NCBI GenBank assembly: GCA_963751275.1
Contig: CAVVTZ010000005.1
Coordinates: forward strand, 32,001-96,000
Direction of reading: 5' to 3'
Length of the DNA stretch: 64,000 nt
Origin: an uncultured Gemmatimonadaceae bacterium
Lineage (GTDB): Bacteria > Gemmatimonadota > Gemmatimonadetes > Gemmatimonadales > Gemmatimonadaceae
The notes below the pieces were generated by a model that was given only the letters and a program-made list of their open reading frames with translations, did no database searches and was not told the origin of the DNA. This document shows positions 24,940-43,819 of this stretch, in pieces; position 1 is the stretch's first letter; each line of letters opens with the position of its first letter. A program made the position numbers and the translations under genes.

Positions 24940-25013
24940 TGGGCGAAGAGGGATTCGAACCCCCGACATCCTGCGTGTAAGGCAGGCGCTCTAACCAGCT
25001 GAGCTATTCGCCC
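24940..25013 (-). tRNA. tRNA-Val (anticodon UAC), CCA not encoded
   Basis: GGGCGAATAGCTCAGCTGGTTAGAGCG-CCTGC-CTTACAC-GCAGG-ATGTCGGGGGTTCGAATCCCTCTTCGCCCA folds as a cloverleaf. Confidence 0.96.
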
Positions 25014-25314: not shown

Positions 25315-26358
25315 TTAGGACCTCGTAACGCCTTCGGGAGGCTCCTCGTCGCCCGGCGGCCGCGGCGGGGGGATCGCACTCGCCAGGAGCGCCTCGATCG
25401 CGCTCTGCCGCGCCGCCCGCTCGGTGGCCTCTTCGGACGCCAGCATCGCGTCCAGGCGACGCCGGTCGCGCCGCCGTCGCGCCGAGTACAGCGGGATCAG
25501 CAGGAGCCCGAGGACCGATGCGAGCACGGTGATGTTCGCGAGCAGCGCGAGCGCGCCGTACCGGCGCATCGTGCGCGCGCGCCAATCCTTCTCGAACGAC
25601 GCCGCCGTGAGACCGTACGCCTCGCGCATCGCCTTGTCCATCGACCCGGTCGCGCGCCACCGCTCCAGGAAGAGCGACAGCCCGCGCACGGTGTCGATCT
25701 GCGCGAGATCGGCGACGGCCCGGTACGCGAGCGCGTATGCGGTGCCCGCCCGCACGGCGCCGCCGGTGAAGCCGGCATCGAGCGAATCGAGCGGTGGCAT
25801 GCCGCCGAGCACGAGGCCCACGCTCGCGGCGAGCACTTCGTCGCGCGCCCACTCGCGCGCGCAATAGCTGGCGTAGCCCTCATCGAACCAGCGCGGCGGC
25901 AGGTCGCCCATGGTCTCGAACAAGGCGAGATGCGCGAGCTCGTGCCGCAGCACGGACACCGGCTCACCGGCATCCGAGCCCGCGTGACTCCCCTGCATCA
26001 CGATCCGGCGCTCCGAGGGGATCGCGATCGCCGCGCCCCACTCCGGCGCGCCGGCGCCCGTCCACTCGCGGAACTGCCGCGCGCCCGGAGCGATCGCGAT
26101 GAGCACCGCGTCCCGCGGACGCGGCAGGCCCGGGAACGTGTCGCGCGCGGCCGCGCTGTCGAGCAGCGTGCGCGCGAGCGGCAGGTCGGCATCGCCCGCC
26201 ATGATCGTGAAGCGTCCGGCGGTGAGGCGCGTCATCTTCCCGTCCTGCGCGCGCGCGCCCGCCGGCGCGGCGAGCGCCAGCAGCAGCGCTACGATGAACG
26301 CGAGGGAGTGCCGCCGTCCTCGACGTGCTTGAGCATCTCGCCGCAGCGCTTCCCCCAT
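25315..26358 (-). CDS. Exported, C-terminally anchored peptidase MA-family (gluzincin) metallopeptidase; start uncertain
   Basis: Signal peptide (AFIVALLLALAAPAGARAQ), HELAH zinc motif followed by PRWFDEGYA, C-terminal TM and basic tail. Confidence 0.75.
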   Translation of the reverse strand: MGEALRRDAQARRGRRHSLAFIVALLLALAAPAGARAQDGKMTRLTAGRFTIMAGDADLPLARTLLDSAAARDTFPGLPRPRDAVLIAIAPGARQFREWTGAGAPEWGAAIAIPSERRIVMQGSHAGSDAGEPVSVLRHELAHLALFETMGDLPPRWFDEGYASYCAREWARDEVLAASVGLVLGGMPPLDSLDAGFTGGAVRAGTAYALAYRAVADLAQIDTVRGLSLFLERWRATGSMDKAMREAYGLTAASFEKDWRARTMRRYGALALLANITVLASVLGLLLIPLYSARRRRDRRRLDAMLASEEATERAARQSAIEALLASAIPPPRPPGDEEPPEGVTRS

Positions 26359-27150
26359 GGATTGAACTTGTTGGCGGCGAGTCCGTCGCGCCACGCCTGC
26401 TTCGCATCCTCCTGCTTGCCGTCGAACCAGAGCGCGCGGCCCAACTCGTAGTACGCTTCGATCAGGTTCGGCCCGATCGCGAGCGTCTTCCGGAAGAAGG
26501 TCTGCGCATCCTCGTACATCTCGCGCTCGGCATACGTGAGCCCCAGGTAGAAATGCGCGTAGAGCGTCGCCTTCCGGTCGTTGTCGAGGCGGATCGCCTT
26601 GGAGAGATGCTCGATCGCCTCGCCGAAGATCTTCTTCTTCAGGCAGATGTATCCGAGGTTGATGCGCGCCAGCGAGTTCGTCGGCTGGCGCATGAGCACC
26701 TTCTGGAAGTTGAGCAGCGCCTCGTCGTACTTCTCCTGCAGCATCTGCGCCCAGCCGAGCAGCGACTCGGTCTGCGGATCGTTCGGCGACAGCTCGAGCG
26801 CCTTGAGCAGCGCCTTCTCCGCGCCTTCGTGATCGCCGAGCGAGATGAGGCTCCATCCCTTCTCGATGAAGGTCGACGCGCCGATGTGGTCGGCGACCAC
26901 CGGTCGCTCGCTCACGAACTCCGGCGCGTTCGAGGGCGCGGTGGATTGCTGCAGCTGCTTCCACCGCTCGACGAGCTTCTTCACATCATCGCGCAGCGCG
27001 GTCATCTCGTGCGATCTCCTGCTCCGTCTGCTTGAACAGGCTGATGATCTCGCCCTTGATCGCGTCGCGCGCGTCCGGCGCGCCCGCGTCCTCGAGGCGG
27101 GCGGCGATCGCGTCGTACTGCTGGCGCAGGCTGTTCGCGTCGTCAGTCAT
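26289..27150 (-). CDS. Coiled-coil plus TPR protein (frameshift near 27010)
   Basis: N-terminal heptad region, then about 5 TPRs (KALELSPND, NLGYICLKK, YLGLTYAER, ELGRALWFDG). Confidence 0.8.
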
Positions 27151-27620
27151 GCGTCGCCGCCTTCACCGCTTTCTTGAGTTCGACCCGCTCGCTCGAGTTG
27201 AGCAGATGCGGCACATCCAGGAAGATGATGAGTCCGTCGTCCTGGCGCACGAGGCCGCGGAGATACTCGGCCTTGAGCCCGCGGAAGACCTTCGGCGGTT
27301 CGGCGACCCGGTCCGCCGGGATCGTCGCCACTTCGAGCACGGCATCCACGATCGCGCCGATCCATTCGTCGCCGGTGGCGAAGATGATGATCCGCGTCTC
27401 CGGCCGCGGATCGCGCCGCTCGAGACCGAATCGCGCGCGCAGGTCCACGACCGGCACCACTTTCCCCTGATGCTCGATCACGCCCTCGAGCCAGCCGGGC
27501 AGGTTCGGCAGCACGGTGGGCTTCGCGTAGCGCAGCACGCGCTCCACCGCCGCCACATTCGCCGGCGAAGCGGTCGTCGCCGAGGCGGAACGTCACGACC
27601 TGCTGGAGGGCGCCGGTCAT
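27143..27620 (-). CDS. cheW: CheW (frameshift near 27560)
   Basis: QVVTFRLG, LPNLPGWLEGVIEHQGKVVPVVDLR, GAIVDAVLEV. Confidence 0.88.
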
Positions 27621-28084
27621 GCGCGCGCTCCGAGGCACGCGCGCACGAGCGCGTCGGGATCGCACACCGCCACGAGCTCCGCGCCGCGTGGCAGCACGCC
27701 CGAGAGCACCGGCTCCGCCGACGCGGGGCCGGGCACCGGGCGCAACGACGCGATATCGGCGAGGATCACATCCTCCACGTCGTCCACGATCACGCCCACG
27801 CGGCCGCCGCGGCCGCGCACGACGAGCGTGACCTCGTCCCCCGCGCCGCTCCGCGCGATGCCGAATACCTGCTCCGCCGCGTACACCGGCAGCCGCGCGC
27901 CGCGATACTGCGCCACGCCCGCCATGTCGCGCGGCATGCCCGGCAGCGAATGGCGCTCGAGCGCTTCCACGGCTTCCTCCGCGTTCGCGAGCGGCATGGC
28001 GAAGAACTCCTTCCCCACGCGGAAGAGCAGGAATTCCGCGAGCCCGGTGAGCGGAGCGGCCGGCGCGGCATCGATGGGCGTCAT
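27617..28084 (-). CDS. cheW: CheW
   Basis: FLLFRVGKEFFAMPL, GVAQYRGARLPV, VGVIVDDVEDV. Confidence 0.85.
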   Translation of the reverse strand: MTPIDAAPAAPLTGLAEFLLFRVGKEFFAMPLANAEEAVEALERHSLPGMPRDMAGVAQYRGARLPVYAAEQVFGIARSGAGDEVTLVVRGRGGRVGVIVDDVEDVILADIASLRPVPGPASAEPVLSGVLPRGAELVAVCDPDALVRACLGARA

Positions 28085-29217
28085 GTCCTCTCCTTGCGCG
28101 TGACCGGGCGGCCGGCGCGTGCGGGCGTGGAGGGCGGCCGCCGCGCCGCGACGGTCTCGGCGATCGCGGCCGCGATCTCTCCCAGGGCGACGACGCGCGT
28201 CGCGCCCCCCGCCGCCGCGGCGGCCTGCGGCATGCCGAAGATGATCGAGGTCGCGCGATCCTGCGCGATGCCGGTCCCGCCGGCGTCGCGGATCGCGCGC
28301 AGTCCCTCGGCGCCATCGCGCCCCATGCCCGTGAGTACGACGCCGATCGCCGCGCCGCCCAGGCACTCGGCGGCCGAGCGGAAGAGCGGATCGGCCGCGG
28401 GGCGCACGCCCCAGATCGGTGGTCCATCGTCGAGCGCGAGCGCGGGGCCATCGGCGCCCGCCCGCAGGCGCAGGTGGCGTCCGCCGGGGGCGATGTACAC
28501 GTGGCCGCGGCGCAGCAACTGGCCATCTTCGGCCTCGCTCACCGGCATGCGGCTGTGCGCGTTGAGGCGCTCGGCGAGACTGCGCGTGAAGCCGGCGGGC
28601 ATGTGCTGCACGACGACGACGGCGGCGTCGAGCGTGCGCGGGAGCGCGGGGATCACTTCGGCGAGCGCGCGCGGTCCGCCGGTGGAACTCGCGATGGCCA
28701 CGACGCAAGCGGCGGCGGCGCTGGCCGGCGCTCCGCGCACTTCGGCCGACGGGATCCGCCGCGCCGATCCGGCTTCCGTGAACGCCGCGACGCCGCGGAG
28801 ATTCACCTCGGCGGCGGCGCGGAGCGCCTCGAGCAGCGGACCGCGCACCGTCGCGAGATCGAGGCTGATCGGGCCGGATGGTTTCTTCAGGAAATCCACG
28901 GCGCCGAGTTCCAGGGCGCGGAACACGGGATCGTTCGGCCCGCCGGTGGCCGCGCCGCTCAGCATCACGACCGGCCGCGGCGATTCCTGCATGATCCGCT
29001 CGAGCGCGGCGAGGCCATCGAGCTCCGGCATCTCGATGTCCATCGTCACGATGTCGGGCTCGAGCGCGCGCACCTTCTTGAGCGCGTCGGCGCCGTGGCG
29101 CGCCGTGCCCACCACGCGGAACTCGCCCGACCCGTCGATGAGATCGACGACGAGCTTGCGCATGAAGGCGCTATCGTCCACCACCAGCACGGTGCGCAGG
29201 GCGCTAGAGCTCGACAT
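28081..29217 (-). CDS. cheB: Response-regulator methylesterase CheB
   Basis: REC domain (VVDDSAFMR, TMDIEMP) plus the STGGP / QHMP / GMGRDG Ser-His-Asp triad. Confidence 0.96.
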   Translation of the reverse strand: MSSSSALRTVLVVDDSAFMRKLVVDLIDGSGEFRVVGTARHGADALKKVRALEPDIVTMDIEMPELDGLAALERIMQESPRPVVMLSGAATGGPNDPVFRALELGAVDFLKKPSGPISLDLATVRGPLLEALRAAAEVNLRGVAAFTEAGSARRIPSAEVRGAPASAAAACVVAIASSTGGPRALAEVIPALPRTLDAAVVVVQHMPAGFTRSLAERLNAHSRMPVSEAEDGQLLRRGHVYIAPGGRHLRLRAGADGPALALDDGPPIWGVRPAADPLFRSAAECLGGAAIGVVLTGMGRDGAEGLRAIRDAGGTGIAQDRATSIIFGMPQAAAAAGGATRVVALGEIAAAIAETVAARRPPSTPARAGRPVTRKERT

Positions 29218-29687
29218 TGCCCCTCGCCATCGAGCGCACTTCGACGCGCCCGTCACCCGTGTGGAAGTACACGCTGCGGCCGTGTCCGCCACCGACGTCC
29301 TCGCCGATCACCGGGATGCGCGCGAGCGCGAGCGCCTTGCGACTCGCCAGGAGATTGCGCTCGCCGATCTGCATGCCGGTGGAGGAAAGCAGCGACGTGA
29401 ACATGCTGGCGCCGCCGACGAGGCGCGCGGTGATGCGGCGGTCCAGCGCGCCCAGCGCGCGCATCTCGCTCGAGGAGCAGCGGCACCGCGGAGGACGGGA
29501 ACTTCGCGCGATTGCTGCGGTCGCGCGCCATCGAGTCGCTGGGCAGCAGCACGTGCGCCAGGCCGCCCACCTGCGCCTCGGGGTCGTGGAGCACGATGGC
29601 CACACAGCTCCCCAGGCCGATGCTGGCGATGACCGCATCCCCCTGCGCGACCGCGGCGTCGGCGACGTGCACGCGGATCTCCTTCAC
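29204..29687 (-). CDS. cheD: Chemoreceptor glutamine deamidase CheD (frameshift near 29470)
   Basis: GLGSCVAI, GGLAHVLLP, GGASMF, IGERN, EDVGGGHGRSV. Confidence 0.93.
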
Positions 29688-30505
29688 GACGCCCGGCGGA
29701 AGATGCGCTCGCGCGCATCCACGACCTCGAAGCGCGACCGCGCGGGGCCGGTGAGCGTCTCGACTTTGCCCTGGAAGAGCAGGCCGCCGGGGGCGAGCGC
29801 GTCGTGGAACTTCTCGAGCAGCGCCTCCTGGGAGCGGCGGTCGAAGTAGATCGTGACGTTGCGGCAGACGATGAGCTCGAACGGGCCGCCGGGCGGCGGA
29901 TCGGCGAGCAGGTCGTGCCGGCCCAGGCGGACGAGCGCGCGCACGGCCGGCGCGATGGCGTACGGCCCGTCGCCGGGGAAGTACGCGGCCCGCAGGTCGG
30001 CGGGCACGTCGGGCAGCGTGGACGCGTCGTACACGGCGCGCTCCGCCGCCTCGAGGCTAGCCGCGTCGATGTCCGTGCCGACGATCTCCACCGCGCGCGC
30101 CTTCTTGCCGAGCGCGGCGAGACGACGGTGCACGAGGATCGCGAGCGTGTAGGTCTCCTCGCCGCTCGCGCAGCCGGCGCTCCAGATGCGCAGCGGCGTG
30201 CGCGCCGCGGTGATCAGCGGCGCGAGCACTTCCGTGTCCAGCGCCGCCCACGCCTCCGGGTTCCGGAAGAAGCGCGTCACGTTGATGGTGAGCGCATCGA
30301 GGAGACGGTCGTACTCGGCGCCGTCGCTGTCGAGCACGCGCGCGTAGTCGCGGTAGGTGTGCACGCCGCGCGCGCGCATGCGCACCGCGATCCGGCGGCG
30401 CAGGCACTTCTCCTTGTAGCTCGCGCAGCCGAAGCCGCGCTCGCGCGTGATCTTGGCGGTGAGCGCCGCGAAATCCGCGTCGGACAAGGCGGTGCCGGCC
30501 GTCAT
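29684..30505 (-). CDS. cheR: Protein-glutamate O-methyltransferase CheR
   Basis: TINVTRFFRN, RIWSAGCASGEE, GTDID, IVCRNVTIYF. Confidence 0.95.
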   Translation of the reverse strand: MTAGTALSDADFAALTAKITRERGFGCASYKEKCLRRRIAVRMRARGVHTYRDYARVLDSDGAEYDRLLDALTINVTRFFRNPEAWAALDTEVLAPLITAARTPLRIWSAGCASGEETYTLAILVHRRLAALGKKARAVEIVGTDIDAASLEAAERAVYDASTLPDVPADLRAAYFPGDGPYAIAPAVRALVRLGRHDLLADPPPGGPFELIVCRNVTIYFDRRSQEALLEKFHDALAPGGLLFQGKVETLTGPARSRFEVVDARERIFRRAS

Positions 30506-32127
30506 GCGGGCATCGTCCTCACGAGATCGAGGTTCGTGCGGATCACTTCGTTCTCGGGGTTGAGCGCGAGCGCACGCTCCCAGTAGGCGAGCGCCTGGTC
30601 CTTCTCCTGCCACTTGAAGCGGATGTTGCCGAGCTTGAAGTACACGTCATCGCCGAGCGCCGGGTCGAGCTTGATCGCACGCTGGAACGCCTCGAGCGCC
30701 TCGTCGTAGCGCGAGCTGCGATAGAGGCAGTCGCCGAGGTTCTTGAACAGCTGCGGGATCGAGCCATCCTCGTGCAGGCCGCGCTCGGCCGCCTGCGCGG
30801 CGGCGGCCATGTCGCCGCGTCGCTCGTGCACCGCCGCGAGCGTGTTGTAGAGCACCGCGGCGTGCGGATGCAATTCGACGCCCTCGTTCACGATCTCGAG
30901 CGCGCGGTCGAGCTCGCCGGTGAGCGCGGCGGCGAGCGCCGCATAGTGGAACCACGCCGGCGATGGCGGGCGCTTCCCCCAGAGCAGCCGCGATGCGGTG
31001 AGCAGCGCATCGGCCTCATCCACGTCGCCGCTCTTGAGCGCGAGCACGCCGAGCGACGTGCGGATGCGCGGATCGTCCTGGCCGCCGCGCTGGATCGCCT
31101 CCTGCAGCGCCTCGCGCGCGTCGTCGTAGTGGCCCATGCGCTCGAGCGCGTAGGCGAGGTTGTGGAAGATCGCCGGGCGCACATTGGGCTGCGCGCCGGC
31201 CTCGCGCAGCGTGAGCACGGCCTCGGACCACTTCCCCTCGCGCATCGCGACGAGCCCGAGATAGAATCGCGCGGGGACGTCGGTCTCGTTCAGCTCCACC
31301 ACGCGGCGGAACTCGCGCGTGGCCTCCTCGAACATCGCGGTCTTGTAGAACGCGACGCCGAGGTTGCGGTGCTCCTCCACGCGCGCCTCGCGCACGCCGT
31401 CATCCACCGGGCGCGACTTGCCGGCGCGGTGGAGGAAGCCCGCGGTCGCGAGCGCGTACAGCGCCTTCCCCACCTCGAACTCGCCGATCCCCGAGGCGTC
31501 GATGAGCGTCGTGACGTCGCGGCGGCCATCGATGAGCGGGATCAGCTGCTCCTGCGTCGGCGTCAGCTGCGCCTCGCTCTGCGACAGGCGCGCGCGGTCC
31601 ACTTCGAAGATGATGTCGAAGCTCGGCACCTTCTTCTCGATCAGGCTCCACTCGTCCACGCGCCGCGCGCCTTCCAGCAGCAGCGACTCGGGATTGATCG
31701 ACACGAGGACGTCGTGCTCCTCGGGGCGCATGTCGGCCTCGAAGCTGAACGTCCCCTGCGTCCACGTGAAGAGGTAGTACACCGCCTCCTCGATCTGCAC
31801 GCGGATGTAGCGGTGCAGCTCCTCGCGCGTGAGGATCTGCTGCTCGATGAGGATCTCGCCGAGCCGCTTGCCGCGGTGCGCCTTGCTCTGCGCCTCGATC
31901 GCGACGTCGAGCTCGAGCTGCGTGACCACGCCGTGCTTCACGAGCAGGTCGCCAAGGCGGTCGCGGCGGTTGACGATGGACGCGTACGAGATGCGCCCGC
32001 GGTCGAAGAAGATGTAGCCGAAGTTGTTCCGATCGGCGACCGACAGGCAGCCGGTCTTCTGCCCCATGGCGAGGAGCTGCAGGACGTCGGGGAGCGACGC
32101 CTCCTTGAGACTGCCCTTGATCGCCAT
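30502..32127 (-). CDS. DUF4388 (PATAN-like) + tandem MshEN-like motif + TPR protein
   Basis: GSLKEASLPDVLQLL..KTGCL, RLGDLLVKHGVV..L...I..Q, FTWTQGTFSF, LLLEGARRVDEW, C-terminal TPR array. Confidence 0.85.
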   Translation of the reverse strand: MAIKGSLKEASLPDVLQLLAMGQKTGCLSVADRNNFGYIFFDRGRISYASIVNRRDRLGDLLVKHGVVTQLELDVAIEAQSKAHRGKRLGEILIEQQILTREELHRYIRVQIEEAVYYLFTWTQGTFSFEADMRPEEHDVLVSINPESLLLEGARRVDEWSLIEKKVPSFDIIFEVDRARLSQSEAQLTPTQEQLIPLIDGRRDVTTLIDASGIGEFEVGKALYALATAGFLHRAGKSRPVDDGVREARVEEHRNLGVAFYKTAMFEEATREFRRVVELNETDVPARFYLGLVAMREGKWSEAVLTLREAGAQPNVRPAIFHNLAYALERMGHYDDAREALQEAIQRGGQDDPRIRTSLGVLALKSGDVDEADALLTASRLLWGKRPPSPAWFHYAALAAALTGELDRALEIVNEGVELHPHAAVLYNTLAAVHERRGDMAAAAQAAERGLHEDGSIPQLFKNLGDCLYRSSRYDEALEAFQRAIKLDPALGDDVYFKLGNIRFKWQEKDQALAYWERALALNPENEVIRTNLDLVRTMPA

Positions 32128-34059
32128 TACCGGAGATCCTCGATCGCGCGGCCCGACACGTCAGGCCAGTCCCACACGACCTTCTCCTCGTCGAGGAAGA
32201 AGCTGTCGGCCTCGCGGCCATCGATCACGCGCGCCGGCGCGGGCGCGAAGCCGCCGCCCTCGAGCTCCTTCCGCGCGAACGACGCGTTGAGCGGCACGCC
32301 CACGACGCCGGCCGCCTTCACGAGGCGGTCCACCGTGGCCGCGAGCTCATCGACGTTGGCCACCGCGCGCGCCGAGAGGAAATCGACGAGCACGCGGTCG
32401 GCGTGCTGCCCCGACGCGGCGAGCATGCGCGCATAGAGCTTCTCGCGCAGCGAATGGTCGGGCGGCTGGATCTCGACCACGAGCCCGCCCTCGAAGCGCG
32501 AGCGCAGCCGGTCCTCGAGGCGCTCGATCTGCCGCGGCGCGCGGTCGGCGCCGAGCACGATCTGCTTGCCGGCCGAGTAGAGGCTGTTGAAGACGTGGAA
32601 CAGTTCCTCCTGCGTGCGCTCGCCCGTGGCGCAGAGCTGCACGTCGTCGATCAAGAGCGCATCCACGAGGCGGTAGCGCGCGCGCCACCGCTCGATGGTG
32701 CCTTCCTGCAGCGCGGCGATCAGCTCGTCGATGAACTGCTGCGCGTTCACGCACGCGACCGGCCGCGCGCCGCCGCCCGCCGCGATCATCTCGTTCGCGA
32801 GCGCGTGCAGCAGATGCGTGACGCCCACGCCGGGCGGCCCGTACAGGAAGAGCGGATTGTACTTCCGCCCGGGTTCGAGCACGACCGTGTCCGCCGCGTG
32901 CACCGCGAGCTGGTTGGAGGGCCCCACCTCGAACGTCGCGCGCGTGAGGTCCGGATCGGGTCCCGGCGGCGGCTCGGCGCCCCCCATCTGCCGCGCGACC
33001 AGCAGCTCCGCCTCGCCCACGCGCTCGGGATCCTTGAACACCTCCGACTCCGCGAGCACCGGATCGAACCGCATCGCCTCCTGTTCGAGTGCGCGCAGCC
33101 GCGCGATCGACGCTTCGTAGCCCTGCAGCAGCGCGTCGACGTCGGGCTCCTCCGTCTGCTCGAGCGTGCGCTCGAGGAGCGTCGTGCCGTAACCCAGCTG
33201 GTGCCAGTACGTCATCGCCTCCACCACGCGCACGCGCCAGGTGTCGATGTGCTGCGCCACCACGTCGCTGAGGTCGGAGAGGAAGCTCGCGAACTCCTGG
33301 CCGCGCGCCGGCGCCTGCGCCATCACCGGGGCCGGCATCGGGCTTCTCACCGAGCAGCTCGCGCACGTTCCGCACCGTCACCTCGGCCTCGCCCAGCGTC
33401 TGGCAGGCGATGAGGCGGTTGAGCGCGCCCTGCAGCTCGCGCACGTTGGAGAAGTTCATGCGCGCCACTTCGTCGAGCACGCCAGGCTCGAACGCCGCCT
33501 GGCGCTCCTCGCACTTCGCGCGCAGGATCGCGACGCGCGTCTCGTAGTCGGGCAGCCCGACATCCACGACCAGGCCGCCGGCGAAGCGCGAGATGAGCCG
33601 CTCGTCGAGGTCCGCGATCTCGTTCGGCGGCCGGTCGCTCGTGAGGATGATCTGCTTCCCCGCGCGCTGCAGCGCGTTGAAGAGGCGCAGCATCTCGCTC
33701 TGCGTCTCGCGCCGGCCGGCGAGGAACTGCACGTCATCCAGCAGCAGGATGTCCACGTCCTGGAAGCGCTGCTTGTAGTTCTCGATCGTGCCCGACGACA
33801 CGGCGGCCGTGAGCTCCTCGACGAACTCGTCGAGCGTGATGTACAGCGAGCGCAGGCTGGGCTGCAGCTGGATCGCCAGGTGGCCCACGGCGATCATGAG
33901 GTGCGTCTTGCCGAGCCCCGAGCTGCTGTAGATGAAGAGCGGGTTGTACGCCGTGCCGGGCGCCTGGGCCACGGCCTTCGCGGCGGAGACCGCGAGACGA
34001 TTGGCCGACCCGACGATGTAGTTCTCGAAGCGATAGCGCGGATCGAGCTCCACCGTCAC
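32127..34059 (-). CDS. Tandem DnaA/Hda-family AAA+ protein lacking DnaA domains I and IV (one frameshift near 33340)
   Basis: Repeat 1: YRFENYIVGSANRLA, YNPLFIYSSSGLGKTHL, LLLDDVQF, RLISRF, NVRELQGAL. Repeat 2: FEVGPSNQLA, YNPLFLYGPPGVGVTHL, LLIDDVQL, RLRSRFEGGL. Confidence 0.85.
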
Positions 34060-34665: not shown

Positions 34666-34672
34666 GGCGCGC

Positions 34673-35188: not shown

Positions 35189-35532
35189 GTGAGCGACTCC
35201 ACGCTCTGGAGCATCGCGCCGCGGATGAGCCCGATGTGCGCGCGCGGCTCGGCGAGCGTGATGATCACGAGTCCCTCGCGGCCGACCACGCACACGTGGC
35301 CGTCGGTGGCCTCCAGCTGGAGGAAGGTCACCTGCCCCAACCCCGCCGCCTGCGACGACAGGCGCGCGCGCCGGTAGAGCGCGGCCGCGAGCGCCGCGAC
35401 GACGCTCTCCGGCACCCCCACCTGGACGTTCGAATCCACGATGATCCCGTCGCGCTCGCCCACCACGAGGCAACCCAGCACGCCGCGCTGGCGGATGAGC
35501 GTCGCGAGGAGATCCTCGAACGGGGAGCTCAT
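35185..35532 (-). CDS. Roadblock/LC7 domain protein (MglC-like)
   Basis: GVLGCLVVGERDGIIV, VAALAAAL, LEATDGHV, IGLIR; 115 aa. Confidence 0.85.
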   Translation of the reverse strand: MSSPFEDLLATLIRQRGVLGCLVVGERDGIIVDSNVQVGVPESVVAALAAALYRRARLSSQAAGLGQVTFLQLEATDGHVCVVGREGLVIITLAEPRAHIGLIRGAMLQSVESLT

Positions 35533-36374: not shown

Positions 36375-37773
36375 CGCCGAGCTCCTTCATCGCATTCCGC
36401 AGTCGCGCGGCCGCATCGGCCACGGCACGCACGTGCGAGGTGTCGGGGGCATCCGGCGCGAGGCGCTGGTAGCGCTCCCAGCCGGCGACGGCGTCCGCGA
36501 GATCGCCGCGCGACGCGGCGCAGGCGCCCAGCAGCAGGTACAGCGCGGGATTGAGCGCGTCGCGCTCGAGCGCCGCGCTCACCGTCTCCAACGCATCGTC
36601 CACCTGCCCCCCCTTGAGCTGGGCCCGCGCGAGCACGATCCGCGCCTCGACGGAGCCGTTGCTCGCGGCGACAGCCGCGGTCGCGGCATGCACCGCCTCA
36701 TTGACGTGGCCATCGCGGAGCGCCGCGTGCGCGCGCTCGAGATGCGCCAACGCATCGTCGCCTTCGCGCGCGACGGTCTGCGTCATCCGGGTCGTGCGCG
36801 TCGCGCGCACGGGCCGCGGGGGCGGCGGCGGCGCGGACGGTGGCGCGGGCGGCGGCGCGGCCACCGGCTCGGCCGCCGGCGCGGCGTCGGGCGGCGTCAT
36901 CACCGACGCGCGATGCATCCCCGTGTGCTCGAGCGACGGCACGTGCAGCAGCGATCCGGGCAGCGACACGACGTCCGGCGCTTCGGCGGCGCGCGCGGGC
37001 GGCGTCGCGCGGCGCGGCGGCAGCGACGGCGGAGGCGGCGGCGTGCCCGTGCCCGGCCGCAGCTCGACGATCCCGGTGGTCACCAGCCCGTAGATCACGC
37101 GCGCCACGTCGAACTCGCTCATCGACGTCGAGTTCGAGATCTCGCGCAGATCGCGCGATCCGTCGATCTGCGCGAGCACTTCCCACTCCTTGGGCAGCAG
37201 GTCGAGCGCGCCGGCGTGATCGGTGTCCACGCTCGAGAGCACCGGGACCACGCCGAGGTGCGGCACCTTCCCTTCGATGAGCGACCACTCATCGATGCGG
37301 CGCGCGCCTTCCATGAGCAGCGACTCGGTGGAGATGCGGATGTCCGCCTCCACCGGCGCGTCCGTCACCTCGCCTTCCTCGAAGGAGAAGAAGCCTTCGC
37401 GCCACGACATCATCTCGAAGACCACTTCTTCCACCTGGATGCGCACCTGGCGCTCCAGCTCCTTGCGCGAGAGCGCGCCGGCCTCGACGAGGATCGCGCC
37501 GAGTTGCCGCTTGTCCCCCTCGCGCCGCTGCTGTTCGCGCATGCGCGTGAGATCGCCCTCGGTGATCTTGCCCGCGCGCAGCAGCAGTTCGCCCAACCGG
37601 TGCGGATTGCTGCGGATGGACGCCGAGAGCACGCCGCCCCGGTCGAAGTACACGGTACCCTGGTTGTCGCGCAGCACCGACGTGACGGTGAGCGTCCCGG
37701 TCTTCCGGCTCAGGTCCAGCAGCTGGAAGACATCGTGGATGCCGAGCTCGCGGAGCGGGCCTTCGATCGCCAT
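36367..37773 (-). CDS. DUF4388 + MshEN-like + Pro-rich linker + TPR protein
   Basis: GPLRELGIHDVFQLL..KTGTL, RLGELLLRAG, WREGFFSF, LLMEGARRIDEW, C-terminal TPRs. Confidence 0.85.
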   Translation of the reverse strand: MAIEGPLRELGIHDVFQLLDLSRKTGTLTVTSVLRDNQGTVYFDRGGVLSASIRSNPHRLGELLLRAGKITEGDLTRMREQQRREGDKRQLGAILVEAGALSRKELERQVRIQVEEVVFEMMSWREGFFSFEEGEVTDAPVEADIRISTESLLMEGARRIDEWSLIEGKVPHLGVVPVLSSVDTDHAGALDLLPKEWEVLAQIDGSRDLREISNSTSMSEFDVARVIYGLVTTGIVELRPGTGTPPPPPSLPPRRATPPARAAEAPDVVSLPGSLLHVPSLEHTGMHRASVMTPPDAAPAAEPVAAPPPAPPSAPPPPPRPVRATRTTRMTQTVAREGDDALAHLERAHAALRDGHVNEAVHAATAAVAASNGSVEARIVLARAQLKGGQVDDALETVSAALERDALNPALYLLLGACAASRGDLADAVAGWERYQRLAPDAPDTSHVRAVADAAARLRNAMKELGDV

Positions 37774-40490
37774 CAGCTGGCCTCCTGGCGATGCCGGAAG
37801 ATCCGGAGCAGGTCGGACGCCGTGCGCATCTCGCGCCGCGCGTTCTTGCCGAACTCGCCGTCGGGCTCGAGCTCCACGACGCGTTCCCATTCGCCGATCG
37901 CTTCGCGATAGCGGTGCTGGTCGGCCAGCAGCACGCCATGCAGGAAGAGCGCGCCCACGTGCCGCGGGTCGAAGCGCAGCACGCGCTCGATGGAGATGGC
38001 GGCGTCGCGCGGCCGGTCCAGCTCCAGCAGCGTCTCGGCGAGCACGAGCAGCGCCTCCACGTTGTACGGGTCGCGGCGCAGCAGGTCCACGAGCGGCGAG
38101 AGCGCGTCCTTCGCGCGGCCGAAGCGCCGGCGCACCTGCGCGAGCGCGAGGGTCGCCTCGACGTACGTGGGCACCGCGTCCAGCGCCGCGAGCAGTTCGG
38201 TCTCGGCGCCGGTCGCATCGTCCCGCTCGGCGAGCAGCCGGCCGAGTTCGTAGTGCACCACGGCGACGTCCGGATCGAGATCGAGCGCGTTCTTGTACGC
38301 CGCGATCGCCCCCTCCACGTCGCCGGCGGCGCGCGCCACATTGCCGAACTGGCGCAGCACATCGGCGCGCGCCGGCGCCAGCCGCCGCGCGTTCTTGAGC
38401 AGCTCGCGCGCCGCCGCCGGATCGCCCGCGTCGGCGCGCGCGCTGGCCACCAACAGGATCGATTCGACGGTGGATGGATCCGCGAGCAGCAGTTCCTCCG
38501 CCACCGCGCGCGCCTGCTCGGAGCGTCCCAGCAGCAGCAGCGCCCGCGTCTCGCCCGCGAGCGCGCGCGGCGCGTTGGCCGTGACGCTCCGCGCGTTCTT
38601 GTACCGCTCGAGCGCCTCGCCGTGCAGCCCCTGCCGGAGGAAGATGTCGCCGAGCAGGATCAGCCCTTCGCCGGTGTTCGCGCCGCGCACGAGCGCGCGG
38701 TTCACCTCGGCAGCCGCGCGGTCGAGCATCCCCTTCGAGAGATACTCCACCGCCATCGCGTACGCCGTCTCGAGCGGCGCGGCGGCGGTCTCCACCGGCG
38801 GCGGCGTGAGCGGCTTCAGCTCCGTGAACAGCGCATCGAGCCGCGCGGAGTCGAAGGCGAACGTCTCCACCGCCTGCTCCACGCGCTGCGCGTCGCCCAG
38901 CGCGGGGGCGATGGAGAGATCGGGATCCTCGTACTCGAGATCGATCGCGAGCTCGAACTTCTGGCGCACGTAGAACGGATCCAGCTCCAGCGCGCGGCGC
39001 GTGGCGCGCAGCGCCCCCTCGAAGTCGCCGAGGTTCGAGAGCGTGAAGCCGAGGTTGTAGTGCGCCTCGGCGTAGTTGGGCCGCGTGTGGATCGCGCGGC
39101 CGAAGGCGTTGCGCGCGTCCTCGTACTTCTTGAGCTCGGCGAGCACGAGGCCGATGCCGTTCCACGCCACCGGCTGCTCGGGATCCACCGTGAGTCCCTG
39201 GCGGTACGCCTCGAGCGCGAGCTGCAGCCGCTTCCCCTGGTAGAGCAGCAGCGCGAGGTTGAGCCACGCCTTCACGAAACCCGGATGCGCGGCGAGCGCG
39301 GCGCGGAACGCATTGATCGCGGCGTCGGTGTTGCCGCCGTGGTACTCGGCGACGCCGAGGTTGTTGTGCGCGATGGCGTACGCCCCGTCGAGCGCCAGGG
39401 CGCGACGGTAGCTCTCCGCGGCTTCGCGATGCCGGCCCTCCTGATGCAGCGCGACCCCGCGCTCGCACCAGAGCTTGGGGCTCTCACTCTCCTCTTCGAG
39501 CAGCCGGTCGTACAACTCGATCGCCGACTTCGGATCGCGCTTGAGCAGGTGTACTTCGGCCATCGCCTGCAGCACCAGCGCGCGGTCTTCCTCCCGCTCG
39601 AGGGCGAGCCGGTATTCCCGCAGCGCCTCGGCGTAGTAGCCCTTCTGCCGGAAGGCGAGGCCGAGGTTGTAGTGCGCGAGCCCGCCCTCCGCCGCGACCT
39701 CCATCTGCGACGAGCGCCGCTCGTGCCGCTGCGGTACGAGCTCCTCGTACTTCGCGGCGTTGTAGCGGTCGATCGACAGGTTCGCCTGCGCGCGCGAGAG
39801 CGAGGGGTTGAGCTGGATCGCGCGCTTCGTGGAGGCGCGCGCCTCCTCGTGGCGGCCGAGGTCGCCGAGGACGAAGCCGAGCAGGTAGTGCGCGTCCGAG
39901 TTGTCCGGGTTGATGTCGATCGAGCGGCGGAGCGCGACGAGCGCCTCCTCGTTCAGTCCGCGGTTGTAGAGCACCTCGCCGATGTAGAAGCTGATGAGCG
40001 GGCTCTTCGGCTCCAGCGCCAGCGCGCGCTCGAACCAGCGCTGCGCGTGCTCGAGATCGCCGCTCGCCTTCTCCGCGAGGCCGAGCTGCACGATCGCGCC
40101 GGCGTCATTGGGATGATGCTCGAGGATCGCGGTGAACTCGGCGACCGCCTCGGGCACGTCGCCGAGCGCGGCGTAGGCGCGTCCCAGCTCCCAGCGCGCG
40201 TCGCGGTCGTGCGGATGCGAGCGGAGCCGGTCGCGCAACTCGGCGACGCGCCGGTCGTAATAGCCGGTGTTGAAGTACGCGACCTCGAGATTGCGCTGCG
40301 CCACCTGCATCTTGGGGTCCAGCTCCAGCGCCTGCTCGAACGACGATACCGCTTCGGCGTACATCCCCTTGTTGTAATAGAGGACGCCGAGGTTGTTGTG
40401 CGCCCCCGCATCGGATGGATCGATGCGCCGCGCGAACGACCGCAGGATGTCACGGTCGCGCTGCGACACGGGGGACAAGGGGCTCGTCAC
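37773..40490 (-). CDS. Large cytoplasmic multi-TPR protein (905 aa)
   Basis: Repeated AHNNLGV / AHYNLG / AWNGIG ... ALELDP TPR units over nearly the whole length. No signal peptide. Confidence 0.9.
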   Translation of the reverse strand: MTSPLSPVSQRDRDILRSFARRIDPSDAGAHNNLGVLYYNKGMYAEAVSSFEQALELDPKMQVAQRNLEVAYFNTGYYDRRVAELRDRLRSHPHDRDARWELGRAYAALGDVPEAVAEFTAILEHHPNDAGAIVQLGLAEKASGDLEHAQRWFERALALEPKSPLISFYIGEVLYNRGLNEEALVALRRSIDINPDNSDAHYLLGFVLGDLGRHEEARASTKRAIQLNPSLSRAQANLSIDRYNAAKYEELVPQRHERRSSQMEVAAEGGLAHYNLGLAFRQKGYYAEALREYRLALEREEDRALVLQAMAEVHLLKRDPKSAIELYDRLLEEESESPKLWCERGVALHQEGRHREAAESYRRALALDGAYAIAHNNLGVAEYHGGNTDAAINAFRAALAAHPGFVKAWLNLALLLYQGKRLQLALEAYRQGLTVDPEQPVAWNGIGLVLAELKKYEDARNAFGRAIHTRPNYAEAHYNLGFTLSNLGDFEGALRATRRALELDPFYVRQKFELAIDLEYEDPDLSIAPALGDAQRVEQAVETFAFDSARLDALFTELKPLTPPPVETAAAPLETAYAMAVEYLSKGMLDRAAAEVNRALVRGANTGEGLILLGDIFLRQGLHGEALERYKNARSVTANAPRALAGETRALLLLGRSEQARAVAEELLLADPSTVESILLVASARADAGDPAAARELLKNARRLAPARADVLRQFGNVARAAGDVEGAIAAYKNALDLDPDVAVVHYELGRLLAERDDATGAETELLAALDAVPTYVEATLALAQVRRRFGRAKDALSPLVDLLRRDPYNVEALLVLAETLLELDRPRDAAISIERVLRFDPRHVGALFLHGVLLADQHRYREAIGEWERVVELEPDGEFGKNARREMRTASDLLRIFRHRQEAS

Positions 40491-41107
40491 GCGATCCGGA
40501 TGGCGCGCAGGATCACGCGCAGCGAAGCGAAGTCCGGCAGCAGCAGGAAGAAGCCGCGCAGATGGTCCGCCTGGTCATCGAACAGGAACTGCGTCTCCAC
40601 CGCGAACACCGTGTCGCGGTCGGCGCCGAACTGCGCGTGCGCCGTCGTGAGCACCGCGGCCGACATGTCCACCACGAGACTCGGCGGCGAGGGCAGCAGC
40701 ATGAGACCCAGGAAATCGCTGAGCGCGTTGAGATACGCGCCGCTCAGGATGTTGCCGGCTTCCTTCAGCGCGCTCTGTTCGAGCTCGGCGAAGGGCGCGG
40801 ACGTGTCGCGCGGCCGCCGGAGCATCAGCTGGGCGAGGCGGATCGCCGTGCTGCGCGGGAAGACGAGCAGCGAGCGCCCCGTCAGGTCGCCGAGCATCTG
40901 CATCATCACGGCCGCGATCGGCTCCTCTTCATCCGCGATCTGCTGCGGCACGTCCTCGAGCGCCGCGATCGTGATGTGCGGCACCGAGATCATGATCCGG
41001 CTGTTGGTCATGAGCGAGAGCGCGGTGGCGGCGTGGCCGGCGCCGATGCTCGCCGTCTCGCGGAGCGCGTCGAGCTCCTTCGGCGTCAGGGAGAGAAGGT
41101 CGGACAT
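40487..41107 (-). CDS. cheC: CheC-family CheY-P phosphatase
   Basis: DALRETASIGAGHAATALS, SALKEAGNIL, YLNALSDFL, PSPPSLVVDM. Confidence 0.92.
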   Translation of the reverse strand: MSDLLSLTPKELDALRETASIGAGHAATALSLMTNSRIMISVPHITIAALEDVPQQIADEEEPIAAVMMQMLGDLTGRSLLVFPRSTAIRLAQLMLRRPRDTSAPFAELEQSALKEAGNILSGAYLNALSDFLGLMLLPSPPSLVVDMSAAVLTTAHAQFGADRDTVFAVETQFLFDDQADHLRGFFLLLPDFASLRVILRAIRIA

Positions 41108-41117
41108 GCGCGCTCCG

Positions 41118-42984
41118 CTAGAGTAGACTGCCGACATCGAGGATCAGCGACGGCGCCCCATCCGAGAGGATCGTGGCCCCGCTGAACAGTGCCATCCCGC
41201 CGCGCACCGGATCGAACTGCTTGACCACGATGTCCTGCTGTCCGGCCAGTTCATCCACCACGAGCGCGGCGTGCTTCTCGCCGACCTCCACGATCACCAC
41301 CTGCTGCATCGGCGCCGCCGAGGCGGCCAGCGACAGCCGGTTCCGCAGCCGCACCACCGGCAGCACGTCCTCGCGCAGGATGATGGCCTCGCGGCCGCGC
41401 ACGGTGCGCACGCTCGCCGCATCCAGCTCCACCGTCTCGGTCACGTGCGTCATCGGCACGGCGTACGTCTCCTCGCCCACCTTGGCGAGCATCGCCCGCA
41501 CGATCGCGAGCGTGAGCGGCAGCCGCGCGGTGACGGTGGTGCCTTCGCCCGACACCGTCCTGATCTCGACCGATCCGCCCAGCGCGCGCACGCGCGTGAG
41601 CACCACGTCGATCCCTACGCCGCGTCCCGACAGATCGGTCACCCGCTCCGCCGTCGAGAAGCCCGGGCGCGAGATGAGCCGCACGAGCTCCTCGTCCGGC
41701 AGCGCTTTCACCGTCGAGAGCACGAGGCCCATCGTGCGCGCCTTCGCGAGCACCTTCGCCCGGTCGATCCCGCGGCCGTCGTCGCTCACGCGGATCGTGA
41801 CCGCCGAGCGCTCGCGCGAGATCATGAGCTTGAGCGCGCCCTCGCGCGGCTTGCCCGCCGCCTCGCGCTCGGCCGGCATCTCGATCCCGTGGTCCACCGC
41901 GTTGCGCAGCAAGTGCATGATCGGCTCGCCGATCTCGTCGAGCATCGAGCGGTCGAGCTCGCTCTCCTGCCCCTCCACCGTGAACGAGACCTCCTTGTGC
42001 AGCGCCCGCGCCGCGTCGCGCACGAGGCGCGGGAAACGGTCGAACACCTGCGCCACGGGCACCATGCGGCAGCGCATGATCTCGTCCTGCATCTCGCCGA
42101 TGAGCCGCGCGCCCTGCGCGACAGTCTCCTCGAGCGCGGGATCGCCCGCCGCGCCGGCCATCTGCTGCAGCTGCCCGCGCGCGATCACGAGCTCGCCCAC
42201 CAGGTTCATCAACGCATCGAGGCGCGTGAGCTCGATGCGCACGTGTCGCGTGCCGCCCGCCGACGGTTCGGCCGCGGGCGCGACGCTCACCGCGGCGCCG
42301 TCGATCGTCACGCTCGCGACGTCCCCCGCCGTGCGCAGCGCCTCCGCCACCAACGAAGGCTCCACGCTCGGCGCGAGACGGATCGTGAACTCGCGCTCGA
42401 ATTCTTCGCGCTGCAGCGCCGCCAGCGCGGGTTCCACCGCCACCACCTTCCCGTACTCCGCCGCCCGCTTCACCACCAGGAACGCCCGCGCCCCCTTGAG
42501 CGCGATCCCCTCCTTCAGCACGACGCGAATGCTGATCCCGCGCTTGCCGCGGTACTTCGCGACCTTCGCCTCGGGCTTGCGCCGGCCGGCAGCCGCCGGC
42601 CGCGCCCCTTCGGCGTAGTCCTTGAGCTTCCGAGCCATCGCCAGCGCCGCCGGATCGTCGGCCTTCCCCGCCACCGCCGACGCGATCGCCTTCTCCAACG
42701 CGTCCACGCCCTTGAACAGCAGGTCCATCAGGTCGGGTGTCACCCGGCGCACCTTCTGCCGCACGCCGTCGAGCAGCGACTCCAGTCTCGTGCGCCAGCG
42801 CCGTCACGCCGGTGTAGCCCATCGTCGCGCTCATCCCCTTCACGCTGTGCACCGCGCGGAACATCCACGCCACCGGCTCGGTGGCGCGCGGCGCGCGCTC
42901 GAGCGAGAGCAGGAGATGGTTGATCGCCGAGAGCTGCTCGCGGCTCTCCGTGCGGAACAGGTCGGCGTAGCGCGTGAGGTCCAT
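41118..42984 (-). CDS. cheA: Histidine kinase CheA (frameshift near 42790)
   Basis: Hpt FRAVHSVKGMSA, Firmicute-type P2, LDALMNLVGELV, HLLRNAVDHGIE, DDGRG, SGRGVG, CheW-like P5. Confidence 0.95.
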
Positions 42985-43002
42985 GCGGCCGGCCCCGGAA
43001 CG

Positions 43003-43371
43003 TCAGCGCGAGCCGACACCCGCTGCACGGCCTCCAGCACGCGGCTCGGCTGGAACGGCTTCACCACGAAGTCCTTCGCGCCCGCCTGGATCGCCTCCAC
43101 CACGAGCGCCTGCTGGCCCATGGCGCTGCACATGAGGATCCTCGCGTTCGGATCGAACTTCGTGATCTCGCGCACGGCATCGATGCCGCCCATGTCGGGC
43201 ATCACGATGTCCATCGTGACGAGGTCGGGCTGAAGCTTGCGTATACTGCGCCACGGCCTGCGCCCCCGTCTCGGCTTCGCCGACGACGTCGAAGCCCGAC
43301 TGCTGGAGGATGTCGCTGATCATCGTCCGCATGAAGATCGCGTCGTCACAGACCAGTACCGTATGGGACAC
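43003..43371 (-). CDS. cheY: CheY, Bacillus/Thermotoga type (frameshifted)
   Basis: VLVCDDAIFMR, TMDIVMPDMGGI, CSAMGQQALVVEAIQAGAKDFVVKPF. Confidence 0.93.
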   Translation of the reverse strand: MSHTVLVCDDAIFMRTMISDILQQSGFDVVGEAETGAQAVAQYTQASARPRHDGHRDARHGRHRCRARDHEVRSEREDPHVQRHGPAGARGGGDPGGREGLRGEAVPAEPRAGGRAAGVGSR

Positions 43372-43384
43372 CGTTACCTCTCGG

Positions 43385-43819
43385 TTAAGCGAGCACGTGC
43401 GAGAGAAGATCATGAATGTCGAGCACGATCACGACGCCGCCCTCATGCGTGCCGAGGGCGCGCACCGCGCCGCCGGCCTGCACGTCGAGCGGCGCCGGCT
43501 CCAGCCCTGCGTCCGGCGCGGCCTGCACCTCCAGCACCTCGTCCACCATCGCCCCCACCAGCTTCGGCCCATGCTCGATCAGCATCACCGCGCCGCCCGC
43601 CGGCGCGGTGCGCACCTTGAGCGCCACACCGAGATCGATCACCGTCACGATCGCGCCGCGCACGTTGAGCAGCCCCACCACCGACTTCGGCGCGCCGGGC
43701 AGGCGCGTCGCCGGCCGCGTGCGCAGGATCTCGCGCACCGCGCCCAGGTCGATCCCGTACGACGTGTCCCCCAGCCGGAAGACCACCAGCCGGCGGGCGG
43801 AGATGTCAGTCGGAGACAC
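43385..43819 (-). CDS. cheW: CheW
   Basis: LVVFRLGDTSYGI, RLPGAPKSVVGLLNVRGAIVTVIDL, GAMVDEV. Confidence 0.92.
   Translation of the reverse strand: MSPTDISARRLVVFRLGDTSYGIDLGAVREILRTRPATRLPGAPKSVVGLLNVRGAIVTVIDLGVALKVRTAPAGGAVMLIEHGPKLVGAMVDEVLEVQAAPDAGLEPAPLDVQAGGAVRALGTHEGGVVIVLDIHDLLSHVLA

Follow-up and report, generated by a model that had tools for sequence, protein, structure and literature searches.

Two described routes to the type IV pilus motor resemble the locus reported here. In Myxococcus, PilB is described as being recruited by the small GTPase MglA by way of SgmX, a protein with 14 tetratricopeptide repeats (TPR) (PMC11580455). In Synechocystis, the PATAN domain is reported to be the output domain of che-like systems and to bind PilB1 and PilC; the same source relates that PATAN genes often neighbour the genes for MglA and MglB, and that a GspE_N domain occurs in some PATAN proteins (10.1101/2021.06.11.447907). 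A survey of small GTPases places MglA proteins of group 1 in the Gemmatimonadetes, with occasional PATAN neighbours, and describes mglA as encoded away from its partners in Myxococcus and Bdellovibrio (PMC4316618). The link between the che-type pathway and the polarity GTPase of Myxococcus is still being resolved piecemeal, from parts scattered over the chromosome. Hallmarks of the che-type pathway concerned, Frz, are a CheA-CheY fusion kinase, a double-receiver output protein and a cytoplasmic receptor encoded in the cluster. The present locus was found in a window of 64,000 nucleotides (nt) from an uncultured member of the Gemmatimonadaceae (contig CAVVTZ010000005.1, positions 32,001 to 96,000), to which all unprefixed coordinates below refer. 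It consists of 19 co-oriented, tightly packed genes at 25315-43831 on the minus strand, in which che genes enclose a block encoding MglA, Roadblock, TPR and PATAN proteins and a tandem DnaA-type ATPase.

The G+C content of the window is about 70%, and genes were therefore called on the minus strand by third-position GC phase and then by Pfam. The resulting order is cheW-cheY-cheA-cheC-TPR-PATAN-a-TPR-Roadblock-Roadblock-MglB-like-mglA-tandem DnaA ATPase-PATAN-b-cheR-cheD-cheB-cheW-cheW-TPR-peptidase, the third protein of the block being a single TPR-Roadblock chain. Every gene named in a preliminary description of this DNA was present, and its statement that all point in the same direction held; its count of 18 was one short, since the TPR and peptidase genes at the end differ in frame and are separate open reading frames (ORFs) in relatives. 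Its gene list likewise stood. Not noted there were the frame breaks that the assembly shows in cheY, cheA, mglA, cheD and the ATPase gene, a matter taken up below.

The junctions are close, as the preliminary description had also stated, most of them overlapping by 1-20 nt or leaving a gap of 7 nt. From the ORF coordinates in the window, the overlap is 20 nt at cheA/cheC, 4 nt at each of cheC/TPR, TPR/PATAN-a, TPR-Roadblock/Roadblock and Roadblock/MglB-like, 8 nt at PATAN-a/TPR-Roadblock and 1 nt at ATPase/PATAN-b, and 7 nt separate the MglB-like gene from mglA. Junctions were also surveyed in ten relatives, the figures being used for the central block only, where they lay between -11 and +4 nt in nearly all ten. 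The PATAN-a/TPR-Roadblock junction was at -8 or -11 nt and the Roadblock/MglB-like junction at -4 or -1 nt in all ten, and TPR-Roadblock/Roadblock stood at -4 nt in nine. A consensus scan of the cluster, which amounts to weak pattern matching, gave no terminator-like site on the coding strand and two on the opposite strand, fewer than the shuffled mean of 4.6. One promoter-like site, again a weak consensus match, lies past the peptidase stop codon (25295-25267).

Conservation was assessed in 17 relatives, which represent three families of the order, by comparing 22 window protein pieces with a stretch of 20 kb surrounding mglA in each. The whole order was kept at 15 of the 17 loci, with occasional loss of one cheW, of cheR or of the peptidase gene. 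Locus L021 was without the ATPase gene, cheD and the tail. Two loci, L018 and L026, were without che genes and retained mglA followed by PATAN-b, one of them also keeping cheR and the TPR gene; PATAN-b came after mglA, directly or past the ATPase gene, at all 17 loci, these two included. Five more distant loci were drawn from four other families of the class and from the public Gemmatimonadota chromosome CP070666.1. Four of them showed the full order, and the fifth held only the ATPase, PATAN-b and peptidase genes. In at least six families the block has remained enclosed by cheC and cheR, so that the interleaving on which the preliminary description turned proved, by neighbourhood comparison, to be a conserved arrangement beside the che genes.

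We lean, by a small measure, towards reading the cluster as a chemosensory pathway with a dedicated MglA/MglB output module steering type IV pili, a scheme in which we infer the protein contacts, the output to pili and what the Roadblock paralogues and the ATPase do. One operon would then supply both the sole chemosensory pathway of the organism and the device on which that pathway acts. Three unlinked methyl-accepting chemotaxis proteins (MCPs) and three CheW proteins would control CheA, which would phosphorylate CheY; CheC would dephosphorylate CheY-P, and CheR, CheB and CheD would adapt the receptors. The target of CheY-P would be the block encoded between cheC and cheR and not a flagellar switch, and this block would set the site at which MglA-GTP accumulates. 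Within it, a diverged MglA GTPase would be paired with a GTPase-activating protein (GAP) of MglB type, two further Roadblock proteins possibly serving as co-GAP, guanine nucleotide exchange factor or scaffold and the large TPR proteins possibly as SgmX-like effectors of MglA-GTP. The PATAN domains would contact the pilus extension motor, by analogy with the cyanobacterial PATAN domain that binds PilB1 and PilC, and one of the two PATAN-TPR proteins, PATAN-b, probably also reads cyclic di-GMP (c-di-GMP). MglA-GTP together with the TPR and PATAN-TPR proteins would direct the pilus motor, with a chemically steered choice of the pole for active type IV pili (twitching direction, reversals) as the outcome. 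The tandem DnaA-type ATPase would be a lineage-specific accessory, using ATP to switch or time the MglA cycle.

The che genes flank the block on both sides. The first of three cheW genes (43385-43831; Pfam CheW, E 2.9e-28) is followed by cheY (43003-43377, 3' end approximate), recovered by a three-frame read with Pfam Response_reg on its C-terminal piece. Next come cheA (41118-42984), encoding P1 (Hpt), P2, dimerisation, HATPase and CheW-like domains, with Pfam Hpt in one frame and P2, H-kinase_dim, HATPase_c and CheW in another, and cheC (40487-41137; Pfam CheC, E 8.7e-18), of the CheY-P phosphatase family. Beyond the block stand cheR (29684-30613, the true start probably near 30505; Pfam CheR, E 1.3e-50, and CheR_N), cheD (29204-29690, 5' end approximate; Pfam CheD on the 3' piece) and cheB (28081-29200, start approximate), which encodes a receiver and a methylesterase domain (Pfam Response_reg and CheB_methylest, the latter at E 1.4e-66). 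The second cheW (27617-28105, start approximate; Pfam CheW, E 1.3e-21) and the third (27143-27600) complete the set; an indel at 27560 disturbs the 5' end of the third, whose Pfam CheW match (E 7.2e-29) begins at model position 16. In two relatives, an extra gene for a 265-aa AAA_22 ATPase lies between cheB and the next cheW (L025:3145-3942, minus strand; L013:15797-16594, plus strand), and the window has no such gene; the best NCBIfam model for the L025 protein is the XrtA/PEP-CTERM-associated ATPase, under its cut-off.

The H-kinase_dim match in this CheA is the single one in the genome from which the window comes. Among 41 relatives (G012 is included in the counts of CheA and PilT), CheA was found in 38, of which 32 had a single match, and those matches that were checked against fetched loci fall in the cluster. 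A search with MCPsignal found no MCP gene in the cluster or on its contig. Three occur elsewhere in the genome among housekeeping genes, encoding HAMP-MCPs of 577 and 511 aa and a GAF-MCP of 794 aa, and all five near-complete relatives have 2-4 MCP genes, none of them near the cluster. The term receptor-less, used in the preliminary description, thus fits the operon and does not extend to the pathway.

The Bacillus/Thermotoga-like make-up attributed earlier to the che proteins was borne out. Pfam gave CheC, CheD and the P2 domain of CheA, and the closest curated NCBIfam models, all below their cut-offs, were those of Thermotogales for CheC and CheD and of haloarchaea for CheA and CheY. In a relative, the CheC_Thtogales model was best for CheC (175 bits against a cut-off of 250), and the CheD copy matched CheD models. 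The intact CheY of a same-genus genome has that of T. maritima (4iga) as its closest solved CheY (E 9.6e-50). Across the order, identity to the window protein is 83-99% over the last 72 residues of CheY, as against 41-89% for CheA. CheA has no receiver domain and the cluster no double-receiver gene (Pfam). A FliM-like CheY-binding peptide was sought at the N-termini of the block proteins; these are conserved, and none could be called FliM-like.

CheC, CheD and P2 are features of class F1, a category of chemosensory systems that reportedly comes from the scheme of Wuichet and Zhulin, and a CheY nearest to that of T. maritima accords with it. A further F1 feature is service to a flagellum or archaellum, and FlhA (FHIPEP), of the flagellar export gate, was not found in the window genome, which is 83% complete. 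It was present in eight of the 41 relatives (six of the 30 with a completeness of 90% or more) and not found in the other 33, 24 of which are among those 30. A flagellar role is therefore excluded for most carriers, in keeping with the earlier statement that this is not an ordinary flagellar operon. It is very improbable that the cluster is a flagellar F1-type chemotaxis operon into which unrelated genes were inserted by chance: that reading draws on the F1-like make-up and on four flagellated relatives in which this CheA is the only one, but it meets both the distribution of FlhA and a block that lies between cheC and cheR, with overlapping stop and start codons, in at least six families.

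The GTPase at the centre of the favoured pilus-steering pathway is encoded by mglA at 34056-34665, where the approximate 3' end was taken from a same-genus copy. Its product aligns over residues 1-187 with residues 1-185 of M. xanthus MglA (6hjh; E 6.1e-71, 241 bits) and also matches MglA of T. thermophilus (3t12). The GPGRSGKT P-loop and the TDRTLFFDF and TVPGQ segments are identical to those of solved MglA, and G19, K25, T26, R53 and Q82 are invariant in 17 sequences; R53 and Q82 are what we take to be the arginine and glutamine of hydrolysis. By full-length similarity and motifs, the cluster GTPase fits the MglA family, group 1 type. A second mglA-like match was present in all 41 genomes searched. 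In the relative G007 it belongs to a stand-alone Roadblock-GTPase (mglB-mglA) pair after dnaX-recR (L113:5394-6662), and in the window genome a second match lies on contig C12 at about 84042-84515. The stand-alone MglA is the closer of the two to Myxococcus MglA (285 bits against 241), and for this reason the cluster MglA is regarded as a diverged, dedicated paralogue.

Three Roadblock proteins are encoded upstream of mglA. The MglB-like protein (34673-35188; 171 aa, Pfam Robl_LC7) has M. xanthus MglB (6h5b) as its best match in PDB, with weak similarity (E 1.6e-6). With a full-length relative of Myxococcus MglA and an MglB-like gene directly upstream of it, the MglA/MglB module of the preliminary description is present. 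The small Roadblock/LC7 protein of 115 aa (35185-35532; Pfam Robl_LC7) matched only generic Roadblock chains in PDB (E 0.005). The TPR-Roadblock protein (35529-36374) combines Pfam TPR_19 with Robl_LC7 at residues 175-251. The largest protein of the block, of 905 aa (37773-40490), matched Pfam TPR families, among them 11 TPR_2 stretches, and is a candidate scaffold or effector. The SgmX model was not among the NCBIfam families listed for it (25 of 32), and the TPR part of PATAN-b from a relative matched SgmX faintly (20.6 bits against a cut-off of 1800).

The two PATAN-TPR proteins were identified by DUF4388 (PF14332), with scores of 133.1 and 111 bits against a cut-off of 25 bits. PATAN-a (36367-37776; E 4.6e-32) has a Pro/Ala-rich linker, and PATAN-b (30502-32127; E 7e-39) is encoded directly before cheR; both run on into TPR repeats, and Pfam found no Response_reg in either. 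Residues 57-111 of PATAN-b matched the c-di-GMP motif of MshEN type (NCBIfam NF053729) at 46.6 bits, above the cut-off of 38, as did the PATAN-b proteins of all four relatives tested (50.6-56.2 bits). PATAN-a scored 32.6 bits, under the cut-off, and its counterparts in the two relatives tested gave no match. In translation, PATAN-b shows two copies of a 24-residue motif of the RLGxx..G..L..Q type separated by a spacer of 7 residues, the second copy having glutamine in place of glycine. The published MshEN motif is described as a tandem of 24-residue motifs with a spacer of 5 residues (PMC5013675). The cyclic-dinucleotide input proposed earlier thus has a basis at family level in the MshE-related motif above the NCBI cut-off, and PATAN-b probably reads c-di-GMP. 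PATAN-b was modelled with confidence by AlphaFold2 (AF2; mean pLDDT 87.7); the matches listed by Foldseek were TPR proteins only and uninformative on the PATAN/MshEN part.

The last two genes of the cluster encode a TPR protein of 238 aa (26289-27005; Pfam TPR families), matched at the loci of 15 of 17 relatives, and a Peptidase_MA_2-like protein with a hydrophobic N-terminus (25315 to about 26298). The Pfam score of the latter is 31.8 bits against a cut-off of 32.4, and reaches 37.7 bits in a relative; the gene was matched at 11 of 17 loci, and it is uncertain whether it belongs to the system. The interval from the cluster to mraW holds two further ORFs with TPR (23055-24969), preceded by a gap of 345 nt and a promoter-like site, and the first of them is 26% identical to its counterpart in G007.

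An output other than pili, still non-flagellar, might be served by the same genes, with the MglA block as a general localisation device for gliding, for control of exopolysaccharide or biofilm, or for c-di-GMP-dependent attachment. The Dif system of Myxococcus, a che-like system with CheC and CheD, is described as controlling exopolysaccharide (PMC2577667); the c-di-GMP motif of PATAN-b and the two genes that end the operon, one a conserved TPR gene and the other encoding a peptidase that looks exported, point the same way. We nevertheless judge this unlikely, in that parts of the pilus motor are, as reported, the only experimentally known partners of PATAN (10.1101/2021.06.11.447907), the best-known direct MglA pathway is described as leading to PilB (PMC11580455) and Pfam found no polysaccharide genes in the cluster.

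The tandem ATPase of the proposed pilus-steering pathway has an odd architecture. Its gene occupies 32127-34060 and would encode about 643 aa if intact. Pfam Bac_DnaA matched in two stretches (379.7 bits), as expected of the double DnaA-like AAA+ gene of the preliminary description. NCBIfam DnaA matches span only model positions 103-343 of 437, and Pfam at E up to 0.01 gave AAA-type families only, with neither domain I nor domain IV of DnaA. In ten of 11 intact relatives the ATPase is one ORF of 596-690 aa, and in the remaining one of 572 aa; its start overlaps or abuts the mglA stop codon in relatives. The N-terminal half matched domain III of B. subtilis DnaA at E 3.1e-56, and Foldseek superposed 233 residues of the model on 8bv3 (B. 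subtilis DnaA) with a TM score of 0.94. In the AF2 model (mean pLDDT 83.9, pTM 0.44), module 1 is joined by a disordered linker to a helical middle of about 100 residues; module 2, a disordered stretch and a short conserved C-terminal helix follow. Module 1 retains Walker A, Walker B and the box VII arginines. The P-loop lysine of module 2 is kept in ten of 12 aligned proteins and replaced by arginine in one; the same-genus row and the window have valine, and the second AAA+ module (32127-33350) may be degenerate in this genus. Two distant families have a single AAA+ module with the middle region.

Of 151 genomes sampled from the phylum, 98 had the ATPase in a profile search (E up to 1e-90), a count that includes G086 and G125. 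By family the figures were 21/31, 69/71, 2/2, 1/1, 1/1, 2/2 and 1/16, and it was not found in the 26 genomes of five other families. When contigs were searched with the ATPase alignment, true DnaA genes dominated the matches; the best 80 of 591 relatives, within the phylum, were the source of the outgroup. A tree of the halves and of DnaA domain III, the latter from 72 other loci, was built on 95 rows by a quick search, unrooted and with support by SH-like approximate likelihood ratio test (SH-aLRT) only. It leaves out L076, the rows of the window genome itself and rows with fewer than about 180-195 aligned residues; several of its branches are long and several rows unusual in composition. The two halves each form a single clan (SH-aLRT 100), which sits on a long branch and falls outside the DnaA radiation sampled, and neither groups with the two Gemmatimonadaceae DnaA rows; the tree leaves the rooting of the halves, and whether they are sisters, unsettled. 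A DnaA-like match separate from the cluster lies on contig C7 of the window genome. In the ESM Atlas, at least six clusters of 593-663 aa are labelled only as "DnaA/Hda family", Gemmatimonadota being the commonest phylum. One locus, L130 (G143:C7:1-17000), has the ATPase, PATAN-b and peptidase genes together and neither mglA nor che genes within 11 kb upstream, so that the ATPase-PATAN pair may work without MglA.

A more specific role for the ATPase is quite unlikely: it would be a new nucleotide switch on the MglA cycle, its modules closing on ATP like protomers of a DnaA filament or co-assembling with DnaA-ATP. If so, filament-like closure of the modules would time or gate polarity reversals, and co-assembly with DnaA-ATP would mean that replication status is read jointly with chemosensory and c-di-GMP input in choosing the active pole. 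Either would constitute a direct molecular link from the fold of the replication initiator to a Ras-like polarity GTPase.

The chromosomal site of the cluster is also conserved. In the three families examined, mraW-ftsI-murE-murF-mraY-murD-ftsW lies downstream and ftsH-cdaA-yggS-divIVA-ileS upstream. In the window, divIVA is at about 50195-50584 and is separated from the first cheW by ileS and about 2 kb without Pfam matches. Of this, 43958-45799 (about 1.9 kb, from ileS to the first cheW) gives only a weak coding signal, is without Pfam matches and has three isolated indels relative to the same-genus genome; it shows no similarity to the matching stretch of G007. A CdaA-type diadenylate cyclase gene (DAC domain) at 53207-54037, near ftsH and tilS, places a cyclic di-AMP synthase in the neighbourhood. 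The preliminary description correctly located the cluster between divIVA and the division and cell wall genes; its suggestion of a role in budding or asymmetric division found no support, position alone saying little on function.

That suggestion can be put more broadly as a polarity device linked to the cell cycle and not to motility, choosing the division site or budding pole or governing pole maturation, with the ATPase reporting or influencing replication status. The site upstream of mraW-ftsI-mur-ftsW and downstream of yggS-divIVA-ileS would suit it, as would the closeness of the ATPase halves to true DnaA domain III in sequence and, for the N-terminal half, in fold, and the retention of the first P-loop and the box VII arginines. 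However, synteny within one class may be inherited without a functional link and makes position weak evidence, and CheR, CheB and CheD imply adaptation over seconds to minutes, which is typical of taxis. The ATPase has no DNA-binding domain IV that Pfam could find, is absent from some otherwise complete clusters and is reduced to a single AAA+ module in two distant families, and known MglA and PATAN systems work on pili or gliding. Such a role is improbable, on a level with the other non-flagellar outputs considered above.

The broken reading frames were mapped against a colinear genome of the same genus, 88% identical over 19.1 kb. Isolated 1-nt insertions were located at 43242 (cheY), 42785 (P1 of cheA), 34108 (mglA), 33327 (ATPase) and 29467 (cheD), with further ones in the cluster at 27560 and 27008, and the 3' end of cheY has additional indels at 43016-43001. 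A three-frame read of 42600-43450 showed that CheY and the Hpt domain of CheA each change frame. The insertion at 34108 removes the mglA stop codon, so that the GTPase frame runs into the first DnaA-like module (Pfam and indel comparison), and that at 33327 splits the ATPase and leaves its two modules in different frames. A real mglA-ATPase fusion, as the open frame at 32347-34665 would have it, was rejected: a stop codon is present there in most relatives, same-genus genomes included, and mglA is a separate gene of 199-203 aa in most relatives.

With five genes out of frame within 18.5 kb, real frameshifts in a decaying operon have to be considered, but they are scarcely credible. About 28 more isolated indels of length other than a multiple of three lie elsewhere in the window, outside the cluster; one at 15148 coincides with the loss of the N-terminal part of the murD ORF, and ileS is in fragments at 45799-49000. 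In the same-genus genome, frames are broken at different places (36047, 31260 and 31003), and third-position GC bias continues unchanged across every break. The assemblies also combine few contigs with low marker completeness (14 contigs at 83% for the window genome, one contig at 89% for the same-genus G005). Given similar indels throughout the window, broken murD and ileS and a coding signal continuous over the breaks, we read the frame breaks of the cluster as probable assembly errors rather than decay, and gene calls in this genome therefore need care. A short mraY ORF also coincides with an indel, at 16548.

Several observations weigh against a dedicated route from the che proteins through MglA to type IV pili. 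The flagellated relatives G017, G019, G020 and G035 each have one CheA match, that of the cluster, and in them the same CheY and pathway may also serve flagella; the closeness of CheY to the flagellar CheY of T. maritima likewise leaves room for a FliM-type target. PilT-family retraction ATPases, the only genes used as evidence of type IV pili, were above the NCBI cut-off in all 41 relatives with several matches each, including the three without CheA, and so do not discriminate. The TPR proteins have generic TPR similarity only. As to the ATPase, the second P-loop reads GVT and not GKT in this genus, and the gene is gone from some che-bearing clusters (L021; CheA is present in three of five ATPase-negative genomes) and is therefore not essential to the link.

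The themes united in the cluster are already known, namely che proteins acting on MglA, PATAN acting on pili and PATAN encoded beside MglA and MglB; what is new is their union in one conserved operon and the tandem DnaA-type ATPase. A full-text literature search, mostly outside subscription journals and with the neighbourhood supplement of PMC4316618 unopened, yielded no description of this architecture. The operon offers a complete candidate circuit. Its chemosensory part comprises the kinase, CheY, the phosphatase and the enzymes of adaptation; to these are added the GTPase and GAP, further Roadblock proteins, scaffolds of TPR and PATAN type and a protein that probably senses c-di-GMP. In a phylum that has received little study, this circuit is kept in at least six families, which provides a short, defined list of proteins for pairwise work. 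It would make directed surface movement plausible for non-flagellated Gemmatimonadota, which are common in soils, and its ATPase would represent a reuse of the DnaA motor domain outside replication.

Set beside class F1 systems of the Bacillus/Thermotoga type, the cluster shares CheC, CheD, a CheA with P2 and a CheY like that of T. maritima, and differs in the eight non-che genes inside the operon and in its occurrence in genomes where FlhA was not found (the window genome, 83% complete, and 33 of 41 relatives). Closest to the ATPase are DnaA domain III and Hda, the AAA+ core of the replication initiator and its inactivator; both ATPase halves match Bac_DnaA, and the N-terminal half superposes on DnaA domain III with the TM score of 0.94 given above. 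Unlike these, the ATPase joins two AAA+ modules in one chain by a helical middle, and Pfam found no domain I or IV. PATAN-b has a tandem 24-residue motif in common with the MshEN domain of MshE/PilB-type ATPases. In PATAN-b, however, the motif lies within a PATAN domain and not at the N-terminus of a secretion ATPase, with a spacer of 7 residues instead of 5 and glutamine for glycine.

Cyanobacterial Tax/Pix systems resemble the cluster in that PATAN is encoded within a che-type gene set, and there it is the output to the pilus motor (PilB1, PilC). In contrast to PatA-type regulators, in which PATAN is joined to a receiver, PATAN is here fused to TPR and CheY is separate; unlike Tax/Pix, the cluster has no receptor, includes MglA and MglB, and has an MshEN-type motif in one of its PATAN proteins. 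The Frz-MglA system of Myxococcus xanthus (MglA/MglB/MglC/RomR, SgmX) has a che-type pathway upstream of a Ras-like MglA switch, with a Roadblock GAP and TPR effectors, for which the corresponding contacts are presumed here. The Frz and MglA systems of Myxococcus are described as encoded apart (PMC4316618), whereas their counterparts are interleaved here in one operon. By Pfam, the cluster has no CheA-CheY fusion, double-receiver protein or receptor of the Frz kind; beyond the Frz-MglA parts, it encodes two PATAN-TPR proteins, three Roadblock proteins and the tandem DnaA-type ATPase.

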